A stretch of 64,000 nucleotides of DNA from Candidatus Bathyarchaeota archaeon (GCA_963828195.1 CAWHDT010000005.1:480001-544000); one strand, 5' to 3'; positions 51,788-62,125 are shown, counted from the first letter of the stretch. The notes: a model not told the origin generated them from the letters alone. Translations and numbers: made by a program.

Positions 51788-52723
51788 GTGAAAGATTATG
51801 GCGGCAACAGACGGATTGGCCCAGTAAATCTCACGATTGGAAAAGGGGAGATCGTGGGGTTTCTCGGTCCTAACGGGTCAGGTAAAACAACTTGCATTAG
51901 GCTGATCTTAGGTTTAATGAGGTCGAGCTCGGGCACAGTGAAAGTCAACGGATTTGACCCAATCGCCAATCATGTTGAGGCTTTAAGGCATGTGGCGTAT
52001 TCTCCTGAGTTGCCTAATATTCAGACTTTTCTGAGCCCAAGAGAGCTTCTAAACTTGATTTCTCACGAACTCTATTTCCCAGATAACGCAAACAGGAAGA
52101 GCGAGATAGATAAAGTGATTGAACTAGTCGGGTTACATGACTACGCAGATACGAAGGTTGGCAAACTAAGTAAAGGTATGATTCAAAGGCTGAGCGTCGC
52201 CCAAGCATTGGTTGGCTCCCCTGAAACTTTGATTCTGGATGAACCGATGATCGGTTTAGATCCTGCGGGGGTAGCTCATTTTAGGGATGTTTTCCGAGAC
52301 TTCGCATCCAACGGGAAAGGTACAGTCTTCATGTCCTCGCATATTATGAGCGAAGTAGAGTCGCTTTGTACTTCTGTCGCGATGATTCACCATGGGAAAA
52401 TACTGTTCAAAGGGTCAGCAGACGAAGTGGTGGGAAAAGTTTTGGATTACTCTCTTGTTGAATTAGAGACTAGCCCCTTAACGCCTCTAACGGTTCAACA
52501 ATTAAAAGAAATTCCTGGGATAACCCAAATTAACATAGCCGATAAAAAAGATAAAGTCGCTATTGAAATTACAGTTTCTGAGCATCACCAAGACATCAGA
52601 CCAGAAGTCGCCGATATTGTGGTCAAGTCAGGCGCTAAACTCTACACTATCAAGCAGGGCGAAAACATGCTGGAGAGAGCTTACATAGAAGCGCTCAAAC
52701 AGACAAAAGGTGGCAAACCTTGA
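51788..52723 (+). CDS. ABC-2 exporter ATP-binding subunit
   Basis: GPNGSGKTT, LSKGM, ILDEP and SSH motifs. Confidence 0.92.
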   Translation: MKDYGGNRRIGPVNLTIGKGEIVGFLGPNGSGKTTCIRLILGLMRSSSGTVKVNGFDPIANHVEALRHVAYSPELPNIQTFLSPRELLNLISHELYFPDNANRKSEIDKVIELVGLHDYADTKVGKLSKGMIQRLSVAQALVGSPETLILDEPMIGLDPAGVAHFRDVFRDFASNGKGTVFMSSHIMSEVESLCTSVAMIHHGKILFKGSADEVVGKVLDYSLVELETSPLTPLTVQQLKEIPGITQINIADKKDKVAIEITVSEHHQDIRPEVADIVVKSGAKLYTIKQGENMLERAYIEALKQTKGGKP

Positions 52724-53580
52724 AACGCCCCGAAGTCATTTTCACTTTCGCTCGGTACGAAATCAAGCGTGCCATAGCGCGAAAAAAAGTTTTGGCTCTT
52801 GTTGCGTTCACGATACTTTTGACTGTGCTTCCATATTACGCGTTGTCGCAAGCAGGAACCAGCCTGATCCCCGCTTCCATCGCCTCATCGGTTGATCCGT
52901 ACCTTTGGGTTTTTGCGGTGATCTTGGTGGGTCCTCTCTTCTTGAACTTTACCGCAATCTTGATAGCTGCAGGTTCAATGTCGGAGGAATACGAGCAGGG
53001 CACTGCCGAACTTCTTTTGTCAAAGCCAGTTAGACGAAGTGACTACATCACAGGTAAATTCCTAGGTGGATATCTTCTGTTTCTTTTTATTCTTACTTTA
53101 ACCATTGTCCTGTCTATTGCTTCGGCGTTCACTTTTTTCGGCGTCCAAAAAGACCTCTACTTAATTCCAGGATTATTCATAGCTCAAGCCTTTAGTTCAC
53201 TACTATTTTTTTCTTTAGCGTTCATGCTTGGAGAACTAATCAGGCGCTCTTCCCTTGCTTACATTTTCTCGTCAGCGATTTTCTTTTCAAGTTACATTAT
53301 AAGCGTTTTTTTGGATGCAATCTTTAGGGCTACAGGCAAAGTAGTTTATAAAACCGTTCAGATGTATCTTCCATCTTCAGCCGCAGGTTCGCTTCCCTCT
53401 CAATATGCTTTGCCGAGGCTTCCCACGGCTCTGTCAACAGCCCTTACCTTCATCAACACTTCAACCATCCGGCCCACAATTAGCTTCTCAATCGAAATCC
53501 TGCTTGTCTACACAATCATAGCATTAACTATTTCAGTAGTCTACTTCTTGCGTGCAGATATTTCAAGAAAACTAAGTTAA
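52720..53580 (+). CDS. ABC-2 exporter permease
   Basis: EYEQGTAELLLSKPVRR...GKF motif and 6 TM helices. Confidence 0.9.
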   Translation: MKRPEVIFTFARYEIKRAIARKKVLALVAFTILLTVLPYYALSQAGTSLIPASIASSVDPYLWVFAVILVGPLFLNFTAILIAAGSMSEEYEQGTAELLLSKPVRRSDYITGKFLGGYLLFLFILTLTIVLSIASAFTFFGVQKDLYLIPGLFIAQAFSSLLFFSLAFMLGELIRRSSLAYIFSSAIFFSSYIISVFLDAIFRATGKVVYKTVQMYLPSSAAGSLPSQYALPRLPTALSTALTFINTSTIRPTISFSIEILLVYTIIALTISVVYFLRADISRKLS

Positions 53581-53686
53581 TTTTTCTTAAAAGCTTATCC
53601 CAATTTAGCACGCTATTTTTTCTCTTCTCACTTCGGCCTTTACCTATGGTATAACATAAAAGCCTGTTTAGGCAACATACCCAAAG

Positions 53687-55084
53687 ATGACCTCAACTCT
53701 CAAATGCATTCACTGCGGCAGTGAATTCCCAGTTTATCCTCTCAGGAGTAACTGTGAAAAATGCGGCGGCACATTGGAGTTTGCAGTTGATTTGCCCGAA
53801 GCTGGAAAATTCAAGTTTTCAGGAGTACAAGGGTTCTGGCGGTACAAAGAGATGATGCCGCCAGTTAAGCACATGGTCAGTTTAGGGGAGGGCGGAACGC
53901 CGTTGCATAGGGCAGAGAGGCTGGCTAAAGCATTTGGGTTAAAAAATCTTTATTTGAAGGATGAAACCCGCAACCCCACAAGCTCGTACAGAGACCGCGC
54001 GGCAGCCCTCTTGACATCAAACGCGATTGACCAGGGTTTTGAGGCGCTGGTCTGCGCAAGTAACGGGAACATGGGCGCTTCTTTAGCTGCTTACGGTGCA
54101 AAAGCAGGATTGATTTGCCACGTCTTGGTTCCCAAAGTTGTGGATGTCGGAAAACTCGCGCAGATGATTGCATACGACGCCGTCATCGAAGAATCAGGCA
54201 CCATTGTGGATGACTCTATTCGCAAAGCGGCGGACTTAGCCAAAGAAACAGGTTGGTACCAAGCTACTGCCGAACTTAACCCGCTCGTGGTTGAAGCCCA
54301 AAAAACCATTGCCTATGAAATAAACGAGCAAGCCCCGATCCCAAACTGGATTGTCGTACCGATGGGAAGTGGCGGAACAATCTATTCGCTTTGGAAAGGC
54401 TTCAAGGAACTCAAGCATCTAGGGCTCGCCGACTCGCTGCCTCGAATGGTTGGGGTTCAAACGGAGGGCTGTGCACCAATAATCAATCAACTTAAAGAAA
54501 ACTCGCCGCTGAAATCGTGTAGCCCGTCCACCCGTGCATTGGCAATACTTGTGGGCGAACCGTTGCAAAGCGACTTAGCCGTGAAAGCAATTCATGAGTC
54601 AAATGGGGTTGCTTTAACCGTTTCAGACAGCGAAATTTTGGCCGCCGAGCTTTTGGTCGCAAAGCTGGAAGGGGTCTTCGCAGAGCCAGCAAGTTCAGCC
54701 GCCGTGGCAGCATTGGAGAAACTGAAAGAAAAAAAGATTTCCAGTGACGACATCGTGGTATCCCTCATTACCGGAAGCGGATTAAAAGCGACTGATGTTT
54801 TGCAAGCGCTGAACAAAAAGCAGAAGACAGCAGGGTTGGGGCTGGCGGTCAGCACTAAGCAGAAGATTCTCAAAATTCTTAGCGAGAAGGACTCTTATGG
54901 CTATGACTTGTGGAAGCAGCTTGGTCAGATTATGACTCGCGCCGCTGTTTATCAGCATCTTAATGAGCTGGCTGAAAGGGGTTTGGTGGTTGGCTATGAG
55001 GAAGGTGGCAAAAGATTTTTCCGGATTACGGAGCGGGGAAGGAAGGTTTTGGCGGCTTTTGACGATATACAGTTGCTTTTGTGA
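53687..55084 (+). CDS. Threonine-synthase-like fold-type II PLP domain (Schiff-base Lys replaced by Arg) fused to a C-terminal PadR-like wHTH
   Basis: N-terminal Zn ribbon, SLGEGGTPL, NPTSSYRDR (canonical NPTGSFKDR), PMGSGG and EPASS. C-terminal ILKILSEKDSYGYDLW..AVYQHLNELAERGLV..FRITERG. Confidence 0.88.
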   Translation: MTSTLKCIHCGSEFPVYPLRSNCEKCGGTLEFAVDLPEAGKFKFSGVQGFWRYKEMMPPVKHMVSLGEGGTPLHRAERLAKAFGLKNLYLKDETRNPTSSYRDRAAALLTSNAIDQGFEALVCASNGNMGASLAAYGAKAGLICHVLVPKVVDVGKLAQMIAYDAVIEESGTIVDDSIRKAADLAKETGWYQATAELNPLVVEAQKTIAYEINEQAPIPNWIVVPMGSGGTIYSLWKGFKELKHLGLADSLPRMVGVQTEGCAPIINQLKENSPLKSCSPSTRALAILVGEPLQSDLAVKAIHESNGVALTVSDSEILAAELLVAKLEGVFAEPASSAAVAALEKLKEKKISSDDIVVSLITGSGLKATDVLQALNKKQKTAGLGLAVSTKQKILKILSEKDSYGYDLWKQLGQIMTRAAVYQHLNELAERGLVVGYEEGGKRFFRITERGRKVLAAFDDIQLLL

Positions 55085-55107
55085 TTGCTGTTCCGTAACG
55101 CTTATTT

Positions 55108-55133
55108 TATAGTATAGCTGCAACTATACTATA
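55108..55133. promoter_or_regulatory. 26-bp palindromic operator candidate over the pdxS promoter
   Basis: TATAGTATAG-ctgcaa-CTATACTATA with perfect 10-bp arms. Overlaps a TATA-like TTTTATA and ends 13 bp before the pdxS ATG. Confidence 0.75.
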
Positions 55134-55146
55134 GACGGGGTTCTGT

Positions 55147-56055
55147 ATGAGCGAAACCAAAAAAATAGTTGAACAAAAAGGAACGGACAGATTAAAAAGA
55201 GGATTCGCCAAAATGGTCAAAGGAGGCGTCGTAATGGACGTTACGAACGCAGAGCAAGCAAAAGTCGCCGAGGCTGCCGGCGCTGTTTCAGTTATGGCTC
55301 TGGAAGCTGTTCCCGCCGACATACGCGCAAGAGGCGGCGTGGCAAGGATGGCTGAGCCAAAAAGAGTGAGAGAAATCATTGCAGCAGTAACCATTCCGGT
55401 TATGGCTAAATGCAGAATAGGTCATATTGCAGAAGCGCAAGTTCTCGAAGCCTTAGGGGCTGACATGGTTGATGAAAGCGAGGTTTTAACTCCAGCAGAT
55501 GAAGATGACCACATCGAAAAAAGAAAGTTCACTCTCCCGTTTGTCTGCGGCGCCAGAAACCTTGGGGAAGCTTTAAGAAGAATAAATGAGGGAGCCGCCA
55601 TGATAAGAACTAAAGGTGAACCAGGAACAGGAAACGTCGTTGAGGCGGTAAGGCACCTTAAACTTATGAACAGAGAAATAGCGGCCTTAAAACGAATGTC
55701 AGACGACCAGTTGACAGAAAAAGCCAAAGAATACTTTGTCCCAATAGAATTAGTTAAAGAGACAAGAGACCTGGGAAGATTACCTGTTGTGAATTTTGCT
55801 GCAGGAGGAATTTCCACGCCGTCTGATGCAGCATTAATGATGCAGTTGGGTGCCGACGGATTATTTGTCGGTTCAGGAGTGTTCAAATCCAAAAATCCGC
55901 AAGCTTACGCAAAAGCAATCGTGGAAGCGGCATTGCATTATGATGACCCAAAGGTTCTCGCCAAAATCTCTGAAGGCTTAGGCGAGCCGATGGATGGGAT
56001 AGATACGTCTAAGATGGAAGAAAAACAAAAAATGCAAACACGGGGAACCAATTGA
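55147..56055 (+). CDS. pdxS: PLP synthase subunit PdxS
   Basis: [30 protein letters not shown] and FAAGG..TP.DAA motifs. Confidence 0.97.
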
Positions 56056-56678
56056 AAGTAGGCGTCATAGCAGTTCAAGGCGCCGTAACTGAACACATCG
56101 ATATTTTAAAGAAAGCAATGAAAGAGCTAAAAATCGACGGCGACGCCCTGCCTATAAGGAAAACTAAAGACTTAGACCACGTTTCTGGGCTGGTCATACC
56201 CGGCGGCGAATCGACAACAATAAGTCGATTAATTCTTGATGCTGGAATGCAACAGAAAATAATTGATCTCGCGGAAAAGGGACTGCCAATTCTCGGAACC
56301 TGTGCAGGCGCAATTCTTCTGGCAAAAGAGGGCGATGAACAGGTAAAGCAGACAAAAACAAGCCTACTAGGCCTCATGGAAATAAGGGTCAACAGAAACT
56401 CTTACGGTCGGCAAGTTGATTCTTTCGAAGTCAATTTGCAAATTGAAGAAATCGGAAAAGAACCTTTCAAAGGAATATTTATCCGTGCACCGACCATAGA
56501 AAAAGTTTGGAGCCCCACTAAAATTTGGGCTAAGCACCAAGCTACAATTGTAGGCGCAAAAAAAGGAAATATTATAGCCCTAACTTTCCATCCAGAATTA
56601 GGCGATGACCTAAGGATACATGAGTATTTCTTAAAAATGGTTTTAAATCAAGAAACTCCTAAGACAAATCAACAGTGA
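56052..56678 (+). CDS. pdxT: PLP synthase glutaminase subunit PdxT
   Basis: PGGESTT, GTCAG, RN.YGRQ.DSF, FIRAP and FHPEL motifs. Confidence 0.97.
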
Positions 56679-57005: not shown

Positions 57006-57623
57006 TTGGATGTGAATAAAGAAGTGGCTGTGAATGAAGCAAGAGCTTCCAGATGGAAAAAAAGCTATAACATTAGCCTTAAGCAAATAATTATTATCTT
57101 ACTTGTCGTTTCATTATTTTTGGTTTTTTTCGCCAATATTGAAGCCCATGCGAACTGGGATTTAATGCGCGAACAAGCTTATGAGTATGGATACTGGATG
57201 AGTTCTGTTTATGGTTTTTTCCCTTCTTATGTTCAAAATAACACCTTCACGGGAAATCTTGCCACAGAAGAGCTGGTTACTGAGCACCTGTTACAGGCAG
57301 GAAGTTGTGTAGGCGCATTAGCAACGACAGACCCCCAACACTTCAGACAGCTAAGCGTTATCCAAAATTTCCTAATGGACTTGCCCTATTCGGATACTGT
57401 TAGGTTGAATGACACATCAAAAGCCATTTTGCTTGATGATTTAGATGGATTAGTATATGCTATACCAAACGCGTATAATGTTTACTCAATTCCTACGTCT
57501 TCTGCTAATACTGACTGGGGTGCGCCGCCATTTTGGTACTTCAGCACAGACCCATGCAACGAAACTACACTACAGAACGCAGTTGCTCTTGCCACCCAAG
57601 GAAGCCAAATAATGTATACGTAA
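57006..57623 (+). CDS. Hypothetical membrane-anchored protein
   Basis: N-terminal TM helix followed by a probable extracellular domain. Confidence 0.6.
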   Translation: MDVNKEVAVNEARASRWKKSYNISLKQIIIILLVVSLFLVFFANIEAHANWDLMREQAYEYGYWMSSVYGFFPSYVQNNTFTGNLATEELVTEHLLQAGSCVGALATTDPQHFRQLSVIQNFLMDLPYSDTVRLNDTSKAILLDDLDGLVYAIPNAYNVYSIPTSSANTDWGAPPFWYFSTDPCNETTLQNAVALATQGSQIMYT

Positions 57624-58026: not shown

Positions 58027-59034
58027 ATGAAATTGCCGCCTGGAAAAATCCCCGTAGATATTCTAAAAGAAGTAGTTTTCAAAAATCTCGGCGTTGAACG
58101 TAACGAAGTAGTTTTGGGTCCTGCTGCCGGTGTGGATGGTGCAGTTTTAGATGTTGGAAACAAAAACGCCATCGTTTCTATGGATCCAATCACGGGCGCG
58201 GTTGGACGCATCGGGTGGGAAGCCATCAACATTAATGCTAATGATGTTGCAACGTTTGGGGTTGAACCCGCCTTTTTCTTCTCGTGCCTGCTTTTGCCAG
58301 AGAACGCTGACAGCAAAATCGTTGAGACAATTTGTGATCAAATGAACGCTGCCGCCAAAGAGTTGGGCATCGCTATTGTTGGTGGACACTGCGAATCAAC
58401 ACCGGGGCTGGCTAATCCCATTGTGGTTGGCTGCATCGTGGGCTTAACAGAAAAAGGCAAATACGTAACCGCCGCGGGAGCCAAAGCAGGCGACAAACTG
58501 ATTTTAACAAAAAGCGCGGGAATTGAGGGTACAGCAATTTTAGCCTCTGACCGCGAAGAACAACTAAAAAAAGTTTTTGCCCCGACTTTTCTTGAAAGCG
58601 CCAAGCAATTCTATGGCCAGATAAGCGTTGTAAAGGACGCTTTGACCGCTTACCGAGCAGGCGGAGTACACGCGATGCATGACCCAACCGAAGGCGGAGT
58701 ACTAAACGGCATCCACGAAATGGCAGACGCTGCAGGCTTAGGCATACGTGTTTTCGAAGAAAAAATAACGGTTGAACCAGAAACCGCCAAAATCTGCAGG
58801 TACTATGAAATTGACCCTTTGCAACTGATGGGTTCAGGCGCTTTGCTTATTGCTGCTCAGCCAGAAACCGCAAGCAAAATAATTGATGCTTTAAGTGTAG
58901 AGCACATTTACGCTGACGTCATAGGCGAATTCAACCCTAACCTCAACAAACGAATACTGATGCATAAAGACGACACGGCAGAGATGCTGCCAAAACCAAT
59001 CTCAGACCATTTATGGATTGCTTTGACACGTTAA
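58027..59034 (+). CDS. AIR-synthase-related (HypE-like) protein
   Basis: DPITG, NDVAT.G, GGH.E and MHDPTEGG motifs. Confidence 0.85.
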   Translation: MKLPPGKIPVDILKEVVFKNLGVERNEVVLGPAAGVDGAVLDVGNKNAIVSMDPITGAVGRIGWEAININANDVATFGVEPAFFFSCLLLPENADSKIVETICDQMNAAAKELGIAIVGGHCESTPGLANPIVVGCIVGLTEKGKYVTAAGAKAGDKLILTKSAGIEGTAILASDREEQLKKVFAPTFLESAKQFYGQISVVKDALTAYRAGGVHAMHDPTEGGVLNGIHEMADAAGLGIRVFEEKITVEPETAKICRYYEIDPLQLMGSGALLIAAQPETASKIIDALSVEHIYADVIGEFNPNLNKRILMHKDDTAEMLPKPISDHLWIALTR

Positions 59035-59068: not shown

Positions 59069-62000
59069 TTAGTGTTGCCTTGGCGCCAAAATGTCTTGGA
59101 AGTCAGGGTTGGCGTTGCCGTACTTTTCTTTTATAGCCCGGTTTATTCGAAGCCAATCATCAAATACTAACGGCCACGTTTGGCTGGTTGAAATCCGTTT
59201 TTTGATGTATTCTTTGATCGAATCTGATCTTTTGATTATTTTTTTCTGCCAATCAACCTCGATCAAGCCGCCGCGACGCAGGTACTGCAGGCTCTGATAT
59301 ACTCTGTCCGAATCAATAGGGTAGCTTAAGCTTCCTGACAAGTCTGCGATAAGTGAATCAAAAGAAATCTCAGCCTCTTCACGCAAACATACCACCGCGG
59401 CTACATCCTGCACCAGCCGTGCACTCTTGCTTAAATAGAAGGTTTTTCTCTTCGGAACCAAAGATTGCTCAATTCTGAAGGCATGCCGCTTGTAGAACCA
59501 TTTCTTCACTGCCTCAGCTAGAAACAGGTAGGCAACGATAAAGAACACCAGGAAAGCGTAGAATAGTGGTGGAGGAGGTACAAAATGGAACAGCTTCCCC
59601 ACTGCTGTATAGGGGATTATGAGTGCTACGGCAACTATTGAGAGACTACTTATTACCAAGTACTTGCCAGGTCTGCTTTTCCAGAAGGGCGATTGCCTAG
59701 TCCTAATGACAAATACCACTAATGTCTGAGTGATAAGCGATTCTACGAACCAGGCAGTTTCGAACATGTGTTGCTGAAAAACTGATGCCAACGGGATGCC
59801 CGATGCTGCTGCAGTCACTGGAATACCAAAAACTAAGTACATTGTAAAGAACGTGGCGTAATCAAAGATTGAACTGAGTGGGCCTTCCACTATCATGAAG
59901 TTTCTGATGAAGGAAATGTCCCATCTTTTGGGGCGCTCAATGTATTCTTCATCGACATTGTCTGTAGCTATCGTAGTTTGAGAGAGAGTGTACAAAAGAT
60001 TGTTTAACAAAATCATGATGGCCAGCATTGGCAGGAAGGGCAAAAATAATGCTGCACCCGCAACGCTGAACATGTTGCCGAAGTTTGAGCTAATACCCAT
60101 CATAACGTATTTCATTGTGTTACCGAATGTTTTTCTTCCCTCGATAACACCTTCAGCCAACACCGTCAAGTCACTCTCTAAAAGTATGATGTCGGCTGAC
60201 TCTTTAGCGACGTCCACAGCATTGTTAACAGAGATTCCAACATCAGACGTTTTAAGGGAAGGAGCATCATTGATGCCATCGCCCATGAAGCCGACAACAT
60301 GGCCGTTGCTTTTCAACAAGTTAATTATTCGGTCTTTCTGCGCCGGAGTTACGCGTGCGAATACATTCGCATCTTCCACAACTCGGGCTAACGCGTCATC
60401 GGTCATTTGGAGCATGTCGTTTCCGAGAACAACACCCTTTATCTCGAACCCAAGTTGTTCACAAACTTTTCTTGTAACGAGCTCATTGTCGCCTGTTAGG
60501 ATCTTTAGTTCTACTCCTTCTTTGGCGAGCAGACGAAGGGACTCTTTTGTCGATTCTTTTGGAGGATCAAGAAAGGCGACGAAGCCCAGAAATATCATGT
60601 CGCTTTCATCATTAACGGTGTAAGCTGCTTTGTCTTCTCTGAGCTTTTTGTATGCCACGCCCAACGCCCTTAATCCTTCAGCGCTTAGATCAAAGAATTT
60701 TTGTTCAATCTTTTTCCGTACGTCCTCAGTAATGTCCTGTATAATGCCGCCTATTTCGCAGTAATTGGAGATTTTTAAAATATCTTCCGGGGCACCTTTT
60801 GCTATGAAGAATCTTTCTCTTTCCTTTTCAACCACAACAGAAACTCGTCTTCGGATGAAATCAAATGGGACTTCATCGATTTTTTGGAACCCTTGGACGT
60901 TAATTTCTTTATGAGATAAAATTGCGTCGTCAAGTGGACTTTTCAATCCAGTTTCAAAATAACTGTTTAAGTAGGAATACAAAAACACTTTATCATCATC
61001 GTTGCCTTCTGAATCAATATGCAAAACAAGCGATATTTTATTCTCAGTTAAAGTTCCAGTTTTATCTGTGCACAAAATGTTCATGCTGCCGAAGTTTTCA
61101 ATTGAAGGCAGATGCTTCACGATAACGCCTTTTTTCGACATGTTTACGGCGCCCTTGGAAAGGTTCATCGTGATGATCATCGGCAAAAGCTCAGGAGTCA
61201 ACCCTACCGCCAAAGCAGCTGCAAAAAGAAGCGATTCAACCAGCGGTCGATGGAAAAGAGTCAGCACAATAAAAACGAAAATAACCAAAACGAACGTCAC
61301 CTGCATGATGAGGTAACTGAATCCTTTGACGCCTCGCTCAAATTCGGTTTCAGGGGGCTTTGCAACAAGTTTCTTGGCAATCTTTCCATATTCTGTGGAG
61401 CCGCCAGTTTTCACAACCACAGCCGTCGAGCTGCCGCTGACAACTGAAGTACCCATGAAAAGATAATTATTCCAGTCAGTAATCGAACCAGAGGATAAAT
61501 TTACTGTTTCGAGCTTGTTGGCGGTCTTTTCCACAGGGAATGATTCCCCGGTGAGAGAACTTTGATTAATAAAAAGATCTTTACCGCTGATTATTCTTGA
61601 GTCCGCAGGGGCGATATCTCCAGCGGACAGGTAAATTATGTCCCCGGGAACTATCTGAGAAAGCTTAAGCTCTTTTTTTAGACCATCACGGAGCACAGTA
61701 GCTGTCGTAGTGACCTTTTCTTTGAGGAGTTCAGCGGCATTTTCCGCTTTAGATTCTTGGTAATGATCTATGATGACACTGATTAACACGATAACAACTA
61801 TTATGGTAAAATCTGGTACATCACCGGTGTAGCCGGCGAAAGCAGCTGCAAACAGAAGTATTAAGATTAAGGGACTTTTAAAATGGAGAAGAAAACTGAC
61901 TATGCCAGAACGTTTCTGCTTTCGCGCTAACTCGTTAGTGCCATAAATATTTAGGTTTTGTTCCGCTTGCTGGGAACTTAGACCCTGGGTTGAGGTTCCA

Positions 62001-62125
62001 AGTCGCAACAATAACTCGTCGGTTGGCAGAGTTAGAATTTCCTCGGATGTTACGGGAGGCTGCGCTAAAGGGATGTTTTCCTTTACGGTGAATATTTCTG
62101 GATTAATCGGTGCGCCGTCTGCCAC
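59069..62125 (-). CDS. mgtA: Mg2+-translocating P-type ATPase (P3B) with C-terminal extension
   Basis: TGES, PELLP, DKTGTLT, GDGINDAP and SSNFGN motifs. Confidence 0.93.
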   Translation of the reverse strand: MADGAPINPEIFTVKENIPLAQPPVTSEEILTLPTDELLLRLGTSTQGLSSQQAEQNLNIYGTNELARKQKRSGIVSFLLHFKSPLILILLFAAAFAGYTGDVPDFTIIVVIVLISVIIDHYQESKAENAAELLKEKVTTTATVLRDGLKKELKLSQIVPGDIIYLSAGDIAPADSRIISGKDLFINQSSLTGESFPVEKTANKLETVNLSSGSITDWNNYLFMGTSVVSGSSTAVVVKTGGSTEYGKIAKKLVAKPPETEFERGVKGFSYLIMQVTFVLVIFVFIVLTLFHRPLVESLLFAAALAVGLTPELLPMIITMNLSKGAVNMSKKGVIVKHLPSIENFGSMNILCTDKTGTLTENKISLVLHIDSEGNDDDKVFLYSYLNSYFETGLKSPLDDAILSHKEINVQGFQKIDEVPFDFIRRRVSVVVEKERERFFIAKGAPEDILKISNYCEIGGIIQDITEDVRKKIEQKFFDLSAEGLRALGVAYKKLREDKAAYTVNDESDMIFLGFVAFLDPPKESTKESLRLLAKEGVELKILTGDNELVTRKVCEQLGFEIKGVVLGNDMLQMTDDALARVVEDANVFARVTPAQKDRIINLLKSNGHVVGFMGDGINDAPSLKTSDVGISVNNAVDVAKESADIILLESDLTVLAEGVIEGRKTFGNTMKYVMMGISSNFGNMFSVAGAALFLPFLPMLAIMILLNNLLYTLSQTTIATDNVDEEYIERPKRWDISFIRNFMIVEGPLSSIFDYATFFTMYLVFGIPVTAAASGIPLASVFQQHMFETAWFVESLITQTLVVFVIRTRQSPFWKSRPGKYLVISSLSIVAVALIIPYTAVGKLFHFVPPPPLFYAFLVFFIVAYLFLAEAVKKWFYKRHAFRIEQSLVPKRKTFYLSKSARLVQDVAAVVCLREEAEISFDSLIADLSGSLSYPIDSDRVYQSLQYLRRGGLIEVDWQKKIIKRSDSIKEYIKKRISTSQTWPLVFDDWLRINRAIKEKYGNANPDFQDILAPRQH

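Follow-up and report, generated by a model that had tools for sequence, protein, structure and literature searches.

What might a protein do that has the fold of threonine synthase (ThrC), an arginine in place of the Schiff-base lysine and a DNA-binding domain at its C-terminus, and whose gene lies directly in front of the genes for pyridoxal 5'-phosphate (PLP) synthase? The question is raised by a gene at 53687..55084 (+) in a 64,000-nucleotide stretch of DNA from a Candidatus Bathyarchaeota archaeon (GCA_963828195.1 CAWHDT010000005.1:480001-544000); we refer to the whole of this stretch as the window, and positions are counted from its first letter. From its sequence, modelled structure and genomic context, we conclude that the product, a protein of 465 amino acids (aa), is probably a vitamin-B6-sensing one-component repressor and thus an archaeal counterpart, though not a homologue, of PdxR in bacteria. 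An earlier note on this DNA had predicted such a B6 regulator, i.e., a dead ThrC fold joined to a winged helix-turn-helix (wHTH) and independent of PdxR, and this prediction is now supported by the loss of the lysine, a separate thrC in the genome, linkage to B6 genes and a predicted operator.

An arginine at the Schiff-base position

A Pfam scan of the open reading frame (ORF) detected PALP and PadR, and neither a GntR nor an aminotransferase class I/II domain. The fold-type II PLP-enzyme domain (PALP, PF00291, 255.5 bits) spans residues 64-363 (53876..54775, +), and its best solved relative is 2zsj (218 bits). A flexible linker (residues 367-388, 54785..54850, +), in which the AlphaFold2 (AF2) model has predicted local distance difference test (pLDDT) values <50, leads to a PadR-type wHTH with a C-terminal helix (residues 389-464, 54851..55078, +; PF03551 at 394-456, 39.5 bits against a cut-off of 27). 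The N-terminal segment (53687..53785, +) contains four cysteines (C7, C10, C23 and C26), invariant in a 32-sequence alignment of the family; short strands are modelled at residues 4-33, and this segment is probably a zinc ribbon. The ThrC-like body of the model is confident (mean pLDDT of the whole, 87.1), and the wHTH is modelled as three helices, a two-strand wing (434-447) and a terminal helix (449-464). When the model was used as a query in Foldseek, the top matches were threonine synthases (template modelling score, TMt, 0.82-0.86).

Fold-type II enzymes require a Schiff-base lysine. At 53969-53998, the DNA reads cgc aac ccc aca agc tcg tac AGA gac cgc, giving RNPTSSYRDR, and when the protein is aligned by HMMER with two threonine synthases of known structure, 2zsj and 2d1f, Arg102 (codon AGA, 53990..53992, +) falls in the same column as the lysine of NPTGSFKDR. 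The segments PMGSGGT, ASNGN and EPASS are all present in the translation. The earlier note had described a ThrC-like protein with this arginine (AGA at 53990), these three segments and a PadR-like wHTH at the C-terminus, and all of these readings agree with the alignments, the translation and the Pfam match. It had also considered that the arginine might be a sequencing error and that homologues might retain lysine. This is ruled out, because arginine occupies the column in 120/120 of the closest database homologues (at least 74% identity, mostly labelled Bathyarchaeia), 118 of them counted by a regular expression and the other two reading SPTNSYRDR.

The lysine is missing well beyond these close relatives. 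When 401 genomes of the phylum were searched with the NCBIfam model NF004170 (PRK05638, "threonine synthase"), and the 29 best loci from other genomes taken as a sample, arginine was found in 29/29 fusions (27 by pattern, three irregular motifs by eye), and canonical ThrC paralogues within these loci retained lysine; the cut-off of the model was exceeded in nine of the 401 genomes. A second fused subfamily (B), scoring ~300-330 bits with NF004170, also has PALP and PadR by Pfam, and PadR was detected in distant fusions with scores of 47.1 (L145), 36.4 (L137) and 35.5 bits (L132; L and G numbers denote loci and genomes). By group, the column holds arginine in 90/90 members of subfamily A, L, M, I, V or T in 16/16 members of subfamily B, and lysine in 4/4 canonical ThrC proteins. 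Finally, we turned to a taxon-blind sample, for which the 150 best cluster representatives were taken from a set of 1.84 billion proteins clustered at 50% identity. Of those with a wHTH (n = 75), two had lysine, 16 arginine and 53 another residue, four being unmatched by the pattern; of those without (n = 75), 62 had lysine, four arginine (three of them fragments) and one valine, with eight unmatched. Thus, lysine was absent from 69 of the 71 pattern-matched proteins with a wHTH and present in 62 of the 67 without one, so that lysine loss and the wHTH co-occur on a wide scale. Clusters with PALP plus PadR in the ESM Atlas are archaeal (Bathyarchaeota, 1978 members; Nitrososphaerota, 53; Thorarchaeota, 50), and one related locus is labelled Promethearchaeia. 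A quick family tree, unrooted and with only four canonical ThrC proteins included, is compatible with a single origin of the fusion but does not demonstrate one.

These results bear on how such proteins are named. The regulator aligns with NF004170 over its full length, wHTH region included (residues 5-458 against 2-441 of 442), with 414.2 bits, i.e., 7 below the curated cut-off of 421, and it exceeds the cut-off of TIGR00260 (thrC; 200.5 against 167.1 bits). However, the best scorers with NF004170 in the phylum, L005 and L006 (G198, G046; 700-703 bits), proteins of the kind from which the model was evidently built, read NPTGSFRDR, have a wHTH and lack the Schiff-base lysine. Because its best-scoring members carry arginine for lysine, the enzyme name of this model is probably wrong, and "threonine synthase" is probably a systematic misannotation.

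Other residues have also changed. We compared 90 Arg-type fusions and 16 hydrophobic-type fusions with canonical ThrC, of which there were just four. Residues T126, T129, S130, N194, S195, R201, N228 and N231 (window numbering), invariant in ThrC, are replaced in the fusions, whereas N128, the glycine-rich loop (G227/G229), T362-G363 and E333 are kept. We take the threonine, Asn-Ser and arginine that are replaced to bind the phosphate group of O-phosphohomoserine in ThrC, and those that are kept to bind the cofactor. Because of this pattern of kept and replaced residues, the sensor could still lodge a B6 vitamer but would not bind or turn over the substrate, and the pattern fits such a role. 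As the earlier note had anticipated, the window's own genome (G000, 2.83 Mb, 96% complete) has a separate thrC with an intact lysine (G000:C5:685219-686205 (-); NPTGSFKDR, TIGR00260 370.5 bits).

A palindrome in front of B6 genes

The predicted regulated gene is pdxS (55147..56055, +; NF003215, 495.2 bits against a cut-off of 395), which encodes the lyase subunit of PLP synthase and is the sole pdxS in the genome. It overlaps by 4 bp with pdxT, for the glutaminase subunit (56052..56678, +; TIGR03800, 215.8 bits against 105.55). With the regulator gene stopping at 55084, the co-oriented pair follows after 62 bp, the distance given in the earlier note. In this gap lies a perfect inverted repeat, TATAGTATAG-ctgcaa-CTATACTATA (55108..55133; 10+6+10), which we predict to be the operator and which has a 22-bp core, TAGTATAG-N6-CTATACTA (55110-55131). 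The repeat ends 15 nt before the ATG of pdxS. Directly 5' of it is a T/A-rich, TATA-box-like element, cttatttta (55101..55109, +), a presumptive promoter element in view of the T/A enrichment at -4 to 0 in 74 distinct relatives. The palindrome matched once in the window, where shuffled sequence gave 0.01 matches on average, and the copy at 55110-55131 has no perfect counterpart elsewhere in the genome, the next best having two mismatches. No palindrome was seen upstream of the regulator gene (53581-53686), so that an autoregulatory operator there is discarded, and the genome has no further site with up to one mismatch.

To set the locus beside its relatives, we assembled 80 related loci (up to 10 kb of flank) and the window; two of these stop at the fusion gene, leaving 79. 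With up to two mismatches, the palindrome occurs in 75/79, always in the intergenic region between the fusion and the next gene and nowhere else in the ~20-kb loci. It precedes pdxS in the window and in L039/L156, and elsewhere a gene of family PF07155 for the S component of an energy-coupling factor (ECF) transporter. The consensus of 74 distinct instances is TAGTATAGyT-NN-AACTATACTA; the arms are near-invariant and the flanks and spacer variable, with the caveat that instances were chosen by similarity to the motif. Changes in the arms are one-sided in 28 cases and compensatory in none, which argues for a site bound by a protein on DNA rather than for an RNA hairpin. The promoter region of the window can be aligned with that of L037 and similar relatives up to the end of the operator, where pdxS replaces the transporter gene. 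Because the promoters are alignable to this point, pdxST appear to have been placed under a pre-existing operator.

The gene next to the fusion is an ECF S component on the same strand in 74/79 loci and is present in another orientation in 2/79; pdxS is next in 3/79 (window, L039 and L113), so that synteny with pdxST is ruled out as a conserved feature. The suggestion in the earlier note that loss of the lysine goes with pdxST synteny is therefore borne out in part: linkage to B6 genes in other genomes holds by way of an S component of the PdxU/HmpT type, and is rare for pdxST itself. The S component of the relatives scores 127 bits with PF07155, and its only solved relative is chain S of 4hzu (HmpT/PdxU2, E 6e-16). 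The B6 transporters PdxU and PdxU2/HmpT are described as belonging to PF07155/COG4720 (PMC9997740); hydroxymethylpyrimidine was the substrate originally predicted for HmpT, and pyridoxamine was reported as its bound substrate by mass spectrometry (PMC4860826). Independent Pfam checks on four proteins, taken from different lineages, confirmed the assignment. In Bathyarchaeia, no genes for the ECF ATPase and T components adjoin that of the S component.

More distant lineages show the same arrangement with other palindromes. In family f16, the S component adjoins the fusion in 9/9 loci and is followed by a double ABC ATPase and an ORF of 226-248 aa without a Pfam match; in subfamily B it is adjacent or nearby in 10/16 loci, mostly in divergent orientation; and in the phylum sample it is present in 22/29. 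The palindromes before the S-component gene are lineage-specific, i.e., TTAAAG-N6-CTTTAA in f16 and TATAAG-N6-CTTATA in subfamily B, as would be expected if operator and regulator diverged together. In a further genome, G344, GTATACAAGT occurs twice in the promoter of pdxS-pdxT, and as a 14-bp palindrome in that of an operon with an ECF-S and an AIR-synthase-related (AIRS)-like gene (C19:26974-27001 and C19:48868-48881; L203, L205). These operons are 22 kb apart, and the fusion regulator is on another contig, adjoining neither. The 10-mer occurs eight times in the 2.8 Mb of G344, no more often than a reversed control, and four of the eight occurrences are in the two promoters. We take the shared motif as a within-genome sign that an operon for B6 synthesis and one for a transporter would be co-regulated.

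The B6 gene content of these archaea is consistent with a need for uptake. Among 40 fusion-bearing genomes (G401-G440, several of them complete chromosomes), true PdxS was found in three and PdxJ in none; in the taxonomic family of the window's genome (f1), PdxS was found in 4/61 genomes, its own included, and in 4/37 of those at least 90% complete. Because PdxS is rare, and because Archaea are reported to have the PdxST route only (PMC9997740), most relatives seem unable to make PLP. They thus appear to lack PLP synthesis yet keep a B6-type importer behind the operator, which predicts widespread vitamin B6 auxotrophy across these Bathyarchaeia. In the window's genome, a search with our own ECF-S profile (E<=1e-3) found no S component of the relatives' type, and PF07155 gives just a 34-bit match elsewhere.

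Mechanism, signal and alternatives

How might the protein work? The sensor would be a ThrC-fold pseudoenzyme in which a Schiff base between lysine and PLP is no longer possible and the cofactor-binding scaffold is kept. A B6 vitamer, most likely PLP, would be bound non-covalently and would set the affinity for DNA of the PadR-type winged helix, to which the sensor is joined by the flexible linker. A dimer would then bind the 22-bp palindrome abutting the TATA-like box of the next gene; dimerization is suggested because the site is palindromic, and by the known behaviour of ThrC and PadR proteins. Repression under sufficient B6 is expected because a regulator at the palindrome would hinder use of the promoter, and is favoured over activation because the operator lies at or downstream of the TATA element, as judged from known archaeal repressors. 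Feedback repression of this kind would be the simplest logic for an importer and a synthase alike. In most relatives, the controlled operon would comprise the PdxU/HmpT-type S component, for uptake of B6, and an enzyme of the PurM superfamily; in this genome, de novo synthesis would come under B6 feedback, because pdxS-pdxT take the transporter's place behind the same operator. We are very confident that the protein is a transcription factor which controls the gene downstream by way of the palindrome, and consider a B6 vitamer the likely signal; a repressor that strictly depends on PLP is only slightly favoured.

Several observations weigh against a B6-sensing repressor. Adjacency to pdxS is rare (the three loci named above), and the assignment of the S component depends on a moderate similarity to HmpT, whose substrate has long been debated, in a Pfam family named after riboflavin. 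Because of this moderate likeness, the first description of HmpT as a hydroxymethylpyrimidine carrier and the riboflavin name, the S component of these archaea is only a presumptive B6-specific transporter. In addition, the ECF-S profile was built from the same loci in which it was then counted, and is partly circular. No S component was found within 1.5 kb in 7/29 loci of the phylum sample, nor within the fetched stretch in 6/16 loci of subfamily B. The remote pdxS genes of G413 and G428 have no such palindrome (up to three mismatches, 1.5-kb flanks). A match at the level of the fusion was found in just 2/10 genomes of the same genus, and the regulator is therefore dispensable.

Further points against it come from particular groups of fusions. 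In two families, the fusion lies directly behind gatD-gatE on the same strand (L126, L128, L129 and L130 of G017, G025, G057 and G065). These genes, assigned by Pfam, presumably encode the subunits of the archaeal Glu-tRNA(Gln) amidotransferase. In some lineages, fusions in this context have no S component nearby. PF07155 genes occur elsewhere in 5/5 of the genomes with this context that were tested, with TTAAAG-like palindromes upstream, and 4/5 lack PdxS. In one family of the same taxonomic order, a canonical, lysine-bearing thrC stands divergently beside the lysine-less fusion (L016, L026, L031 and L034). This gene may be a trace of the duplication that gave the regulator, but it could also hint at a link to threonine. 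Finally, lysine is retained in a few fusions (L132:4662-6074 of G360, P0121 and P0125). These read NPTNSFKDR or NPTSSFKDR, yet have the other substitutions of the Arg-type subfamily A. L132 nests among Arg-type members in the quick, unrooted tree, which suggests that its lysine is a reversion. Lysine-bearing fusions could bind PLP covalently, like MocR proteins.

What, then, are the alternatives? A transcription factor of the same architecture could respond to a ligand outside the B6 family, e.g., hydroxymethylpyrimidine or a metabolite of the threonine pathway such as O-phosphohomoserine, its operon serving another salvage pathway. The descent of the sensor from ThrC and the canonical thrC beside the fusion in four loci would suit a threonine metabolite; but N194, S195 and R201, invariant in ThrC, are replaced, and the four loci also have an S component downstream. 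In the same way, the name under which HmpT was introduced (PMC4860826) and the ThiL/HypE-like gene after the S component would suit hydroxymethylpyrimidine, but a true ThiL is encoded elsewhere in the genome. Given that pdxS-pdxT stand in the exact place of the transporter behind the same operator in three genomes, that the pdxST and ECF-S promoters of G344 have a common motif, and that PdxS and PdxJ are mostly missing from genomes that encode the transporter, we regard a non-B6 ligand as rather unlikely.

It is very improbable that the protein is a working enzyme, i.e., a threonine synthase, or a PLP enzyme using another lysine or a non-covalently held cofactor, with the wHTH accessory or moonlighting. 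Its homologues are named threonine synthase in the sources, its fold is ThrC-like, it passes the cut-off of TIGR00260 and matches NF004170 over its full length, and a few fusions keep the lysine. Set against this are the absence of the lysine from nearly all wHTH-bearing representatives in the taxon-blind sample, the replacement of several further ThrC-invariant residues, the canonical thrC in the same genome, and the nature of the conserved partners, which are a transporter and an operator and no genes of the threonine pathway. The inverted repeat itself might be an RNA hairpin that terminates the upstream gene or acts as a cis-regulatory RNA, with the gene order conserved by coincidence among relatives. 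A 10-bp stem with a 6-nt loop just past the upstream stop codon could indeed fold, and shared ancestry makes the conservation of the loci, taken alone, weak evidence. However, it is the sequence of the arms and not their pairing that is conserved, no T-run follows the repeat, the TATA-like box abuts it, palindromes also precede the S-component gene in divergent loci of subfamily B, at a place where no other gene terminates, and the lineage-specific palindromes track the regulator subfamilies; a hairpin is hardly credible. We therefore prefer a B6-sensing repressor.

In the window, an AIRS gene of the PurM superfamily (58027..59034, +; Pfam AIRS and AIRS_C) lies downstream of pdxT. Such a gene is present in 65/81 loci, and in 52 it is directly behind the ECF-S gene and co-directional, with gaps of -56 to +188 bp (e.g., L064:12028-13035, L205:1-755). 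It is ruled out as ThiL: it matches ThiL with 94.9 bits, against 252 bits for the true ThiL elsewhere in G000. Among solved structures, HypE proteins come closest to its product, with just 85 bits. Strong kinases of the ThiD/PdxK family (PF08543, ~300 bits or more) were found in 10/41 of the genomes. The gene is a candidate B6 salvage enzyme, and thereby a candidate for the "uncharacterized B6 kinase" left unassigned in a survey of PLP pathways (PMC9997740). A wider, and so far doubtful, possibility is a pan-archaeal B6 regulon, from Thermoproteota to Asgard, in which a lysine-less, ThrC-derived repressor would sense PLP and control a PdxU-type importer, pdxST and a PurM-superfamily salvage enzyme, e.g., a vitamer kinase replacing PdxK. 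If so, most Bathyarchaeia would be B6 auxotrophs living on vitamers supplied by their community.

Other neighbours of the locus were also noted. Between pdxT and the AIRS-like gene, an ORF of 205 aa (57006-57623) has one hydrophobic stretch near its N-terminus; it gave no Pfam or NCBIfam match, none of the neighbouring genes in the 80 related loci is related to it, and it may have entered the locus along with pdxST. Upstream of the regulator gene, on the same strand (51788-53580), are an ABC ATPase-like ORF (311 aa, GPNGSGKT P-loop) and an overlapping membrane ORF (286 aa), a pair that also precedes the regulator gene in the closest relative, L035. On the opposite strand, 59069-62125 (-) encodes an ORF of 1018 aa with the motif DKTGTLT, which we take to be typical of P-type ATPases; a homologous gene is found near the locus in 13 relatives (cluster 16).

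Relation to known regulators

A literature search, with subscription journals and supplements outside its scope, yielded no description of a regulator with a ThrC-like or PALP plus PadR make-up, nor of a B6 regulator from Archaea; the earlier note had likewise known of no characterization. If our interpretation is correct, this would be the first B6 regulator in Archaea and the second invention of a sensor from a PLP-enzyme fold, here a different fold and an enzyme turned sensor. The palindrome and target genes would provide an operator and a regulon that can be tested directly. Thousands of "threonine synthase" genes would need re-annotation, including those under NCBIfam PRK05638, and most Bathyarchaeia of this taxonomic family would depend on imported vitamers, being unable to make B6 de novo.

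The regulator resembles PdxR in that both are one-component proteins combining the fold of a PLP enzyme with a winged helix. In PdxR, which belongs to the MocR/GabR subfamily of GntR regulators, an N-terminal GntR wHTH is followed by a fold-type I aminotransferase domain with PLP on a lysine. Here, by contrast, the sensor is of fold type II (ThrC-like), N-terminal and without the lysine, and the wHTH is of the PadR type and C-terminal. Because fold type, wHTH family, domain order and cofactor attachment all differ, the regulator is not a member of the PdxR family, and the two are functional analogues, not homologues. Bacterial PdxR regulons include pdxST, pdxK and pdxU, and MocR regulators are stated in the same source to be absent from Archaea (PMC5320631); a PdxR-PdxKU locus with regulator, kinase and transporter has been reported in Streptococcus pyogenes (PMC11619246).

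With ThrC itself (2zsj, 2d1f, 6cgq, 1uim), the regulator shares the fold, 36-41% identity over ~330 residues, the Cys-rich N-terminus and the glycine-rich cofactor loop, but it has arginine for lysine, replacements at invariant residues and the additional linker and wHTH. It is homologous to ThrC but fails the defining catalytic features of that enzyme. It falls within or just under the family NF004170, having the same architecture as the best scorers. As to its targets, the regulated gene of the relatives belongs to the same Pfam family, PF07155, as PdxU2/HmpT (4hzu S), whereas the window has pdxST instead. Within Archaea, the regulator also resembles vitamin regulators made from enzyme domains, such as RbkR, a riboflavin kinase with a DNA-binding domain, which is described as a sensor derived from an enzyme that controls genes for the synthesis and transport of the same vitamin (PMC5397151). 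RbkR is described there as bifunctional, with an active kinase, whereas the present regulator is apparently catalytically dead, and the two differ in vitamin, fold and wHTH family.

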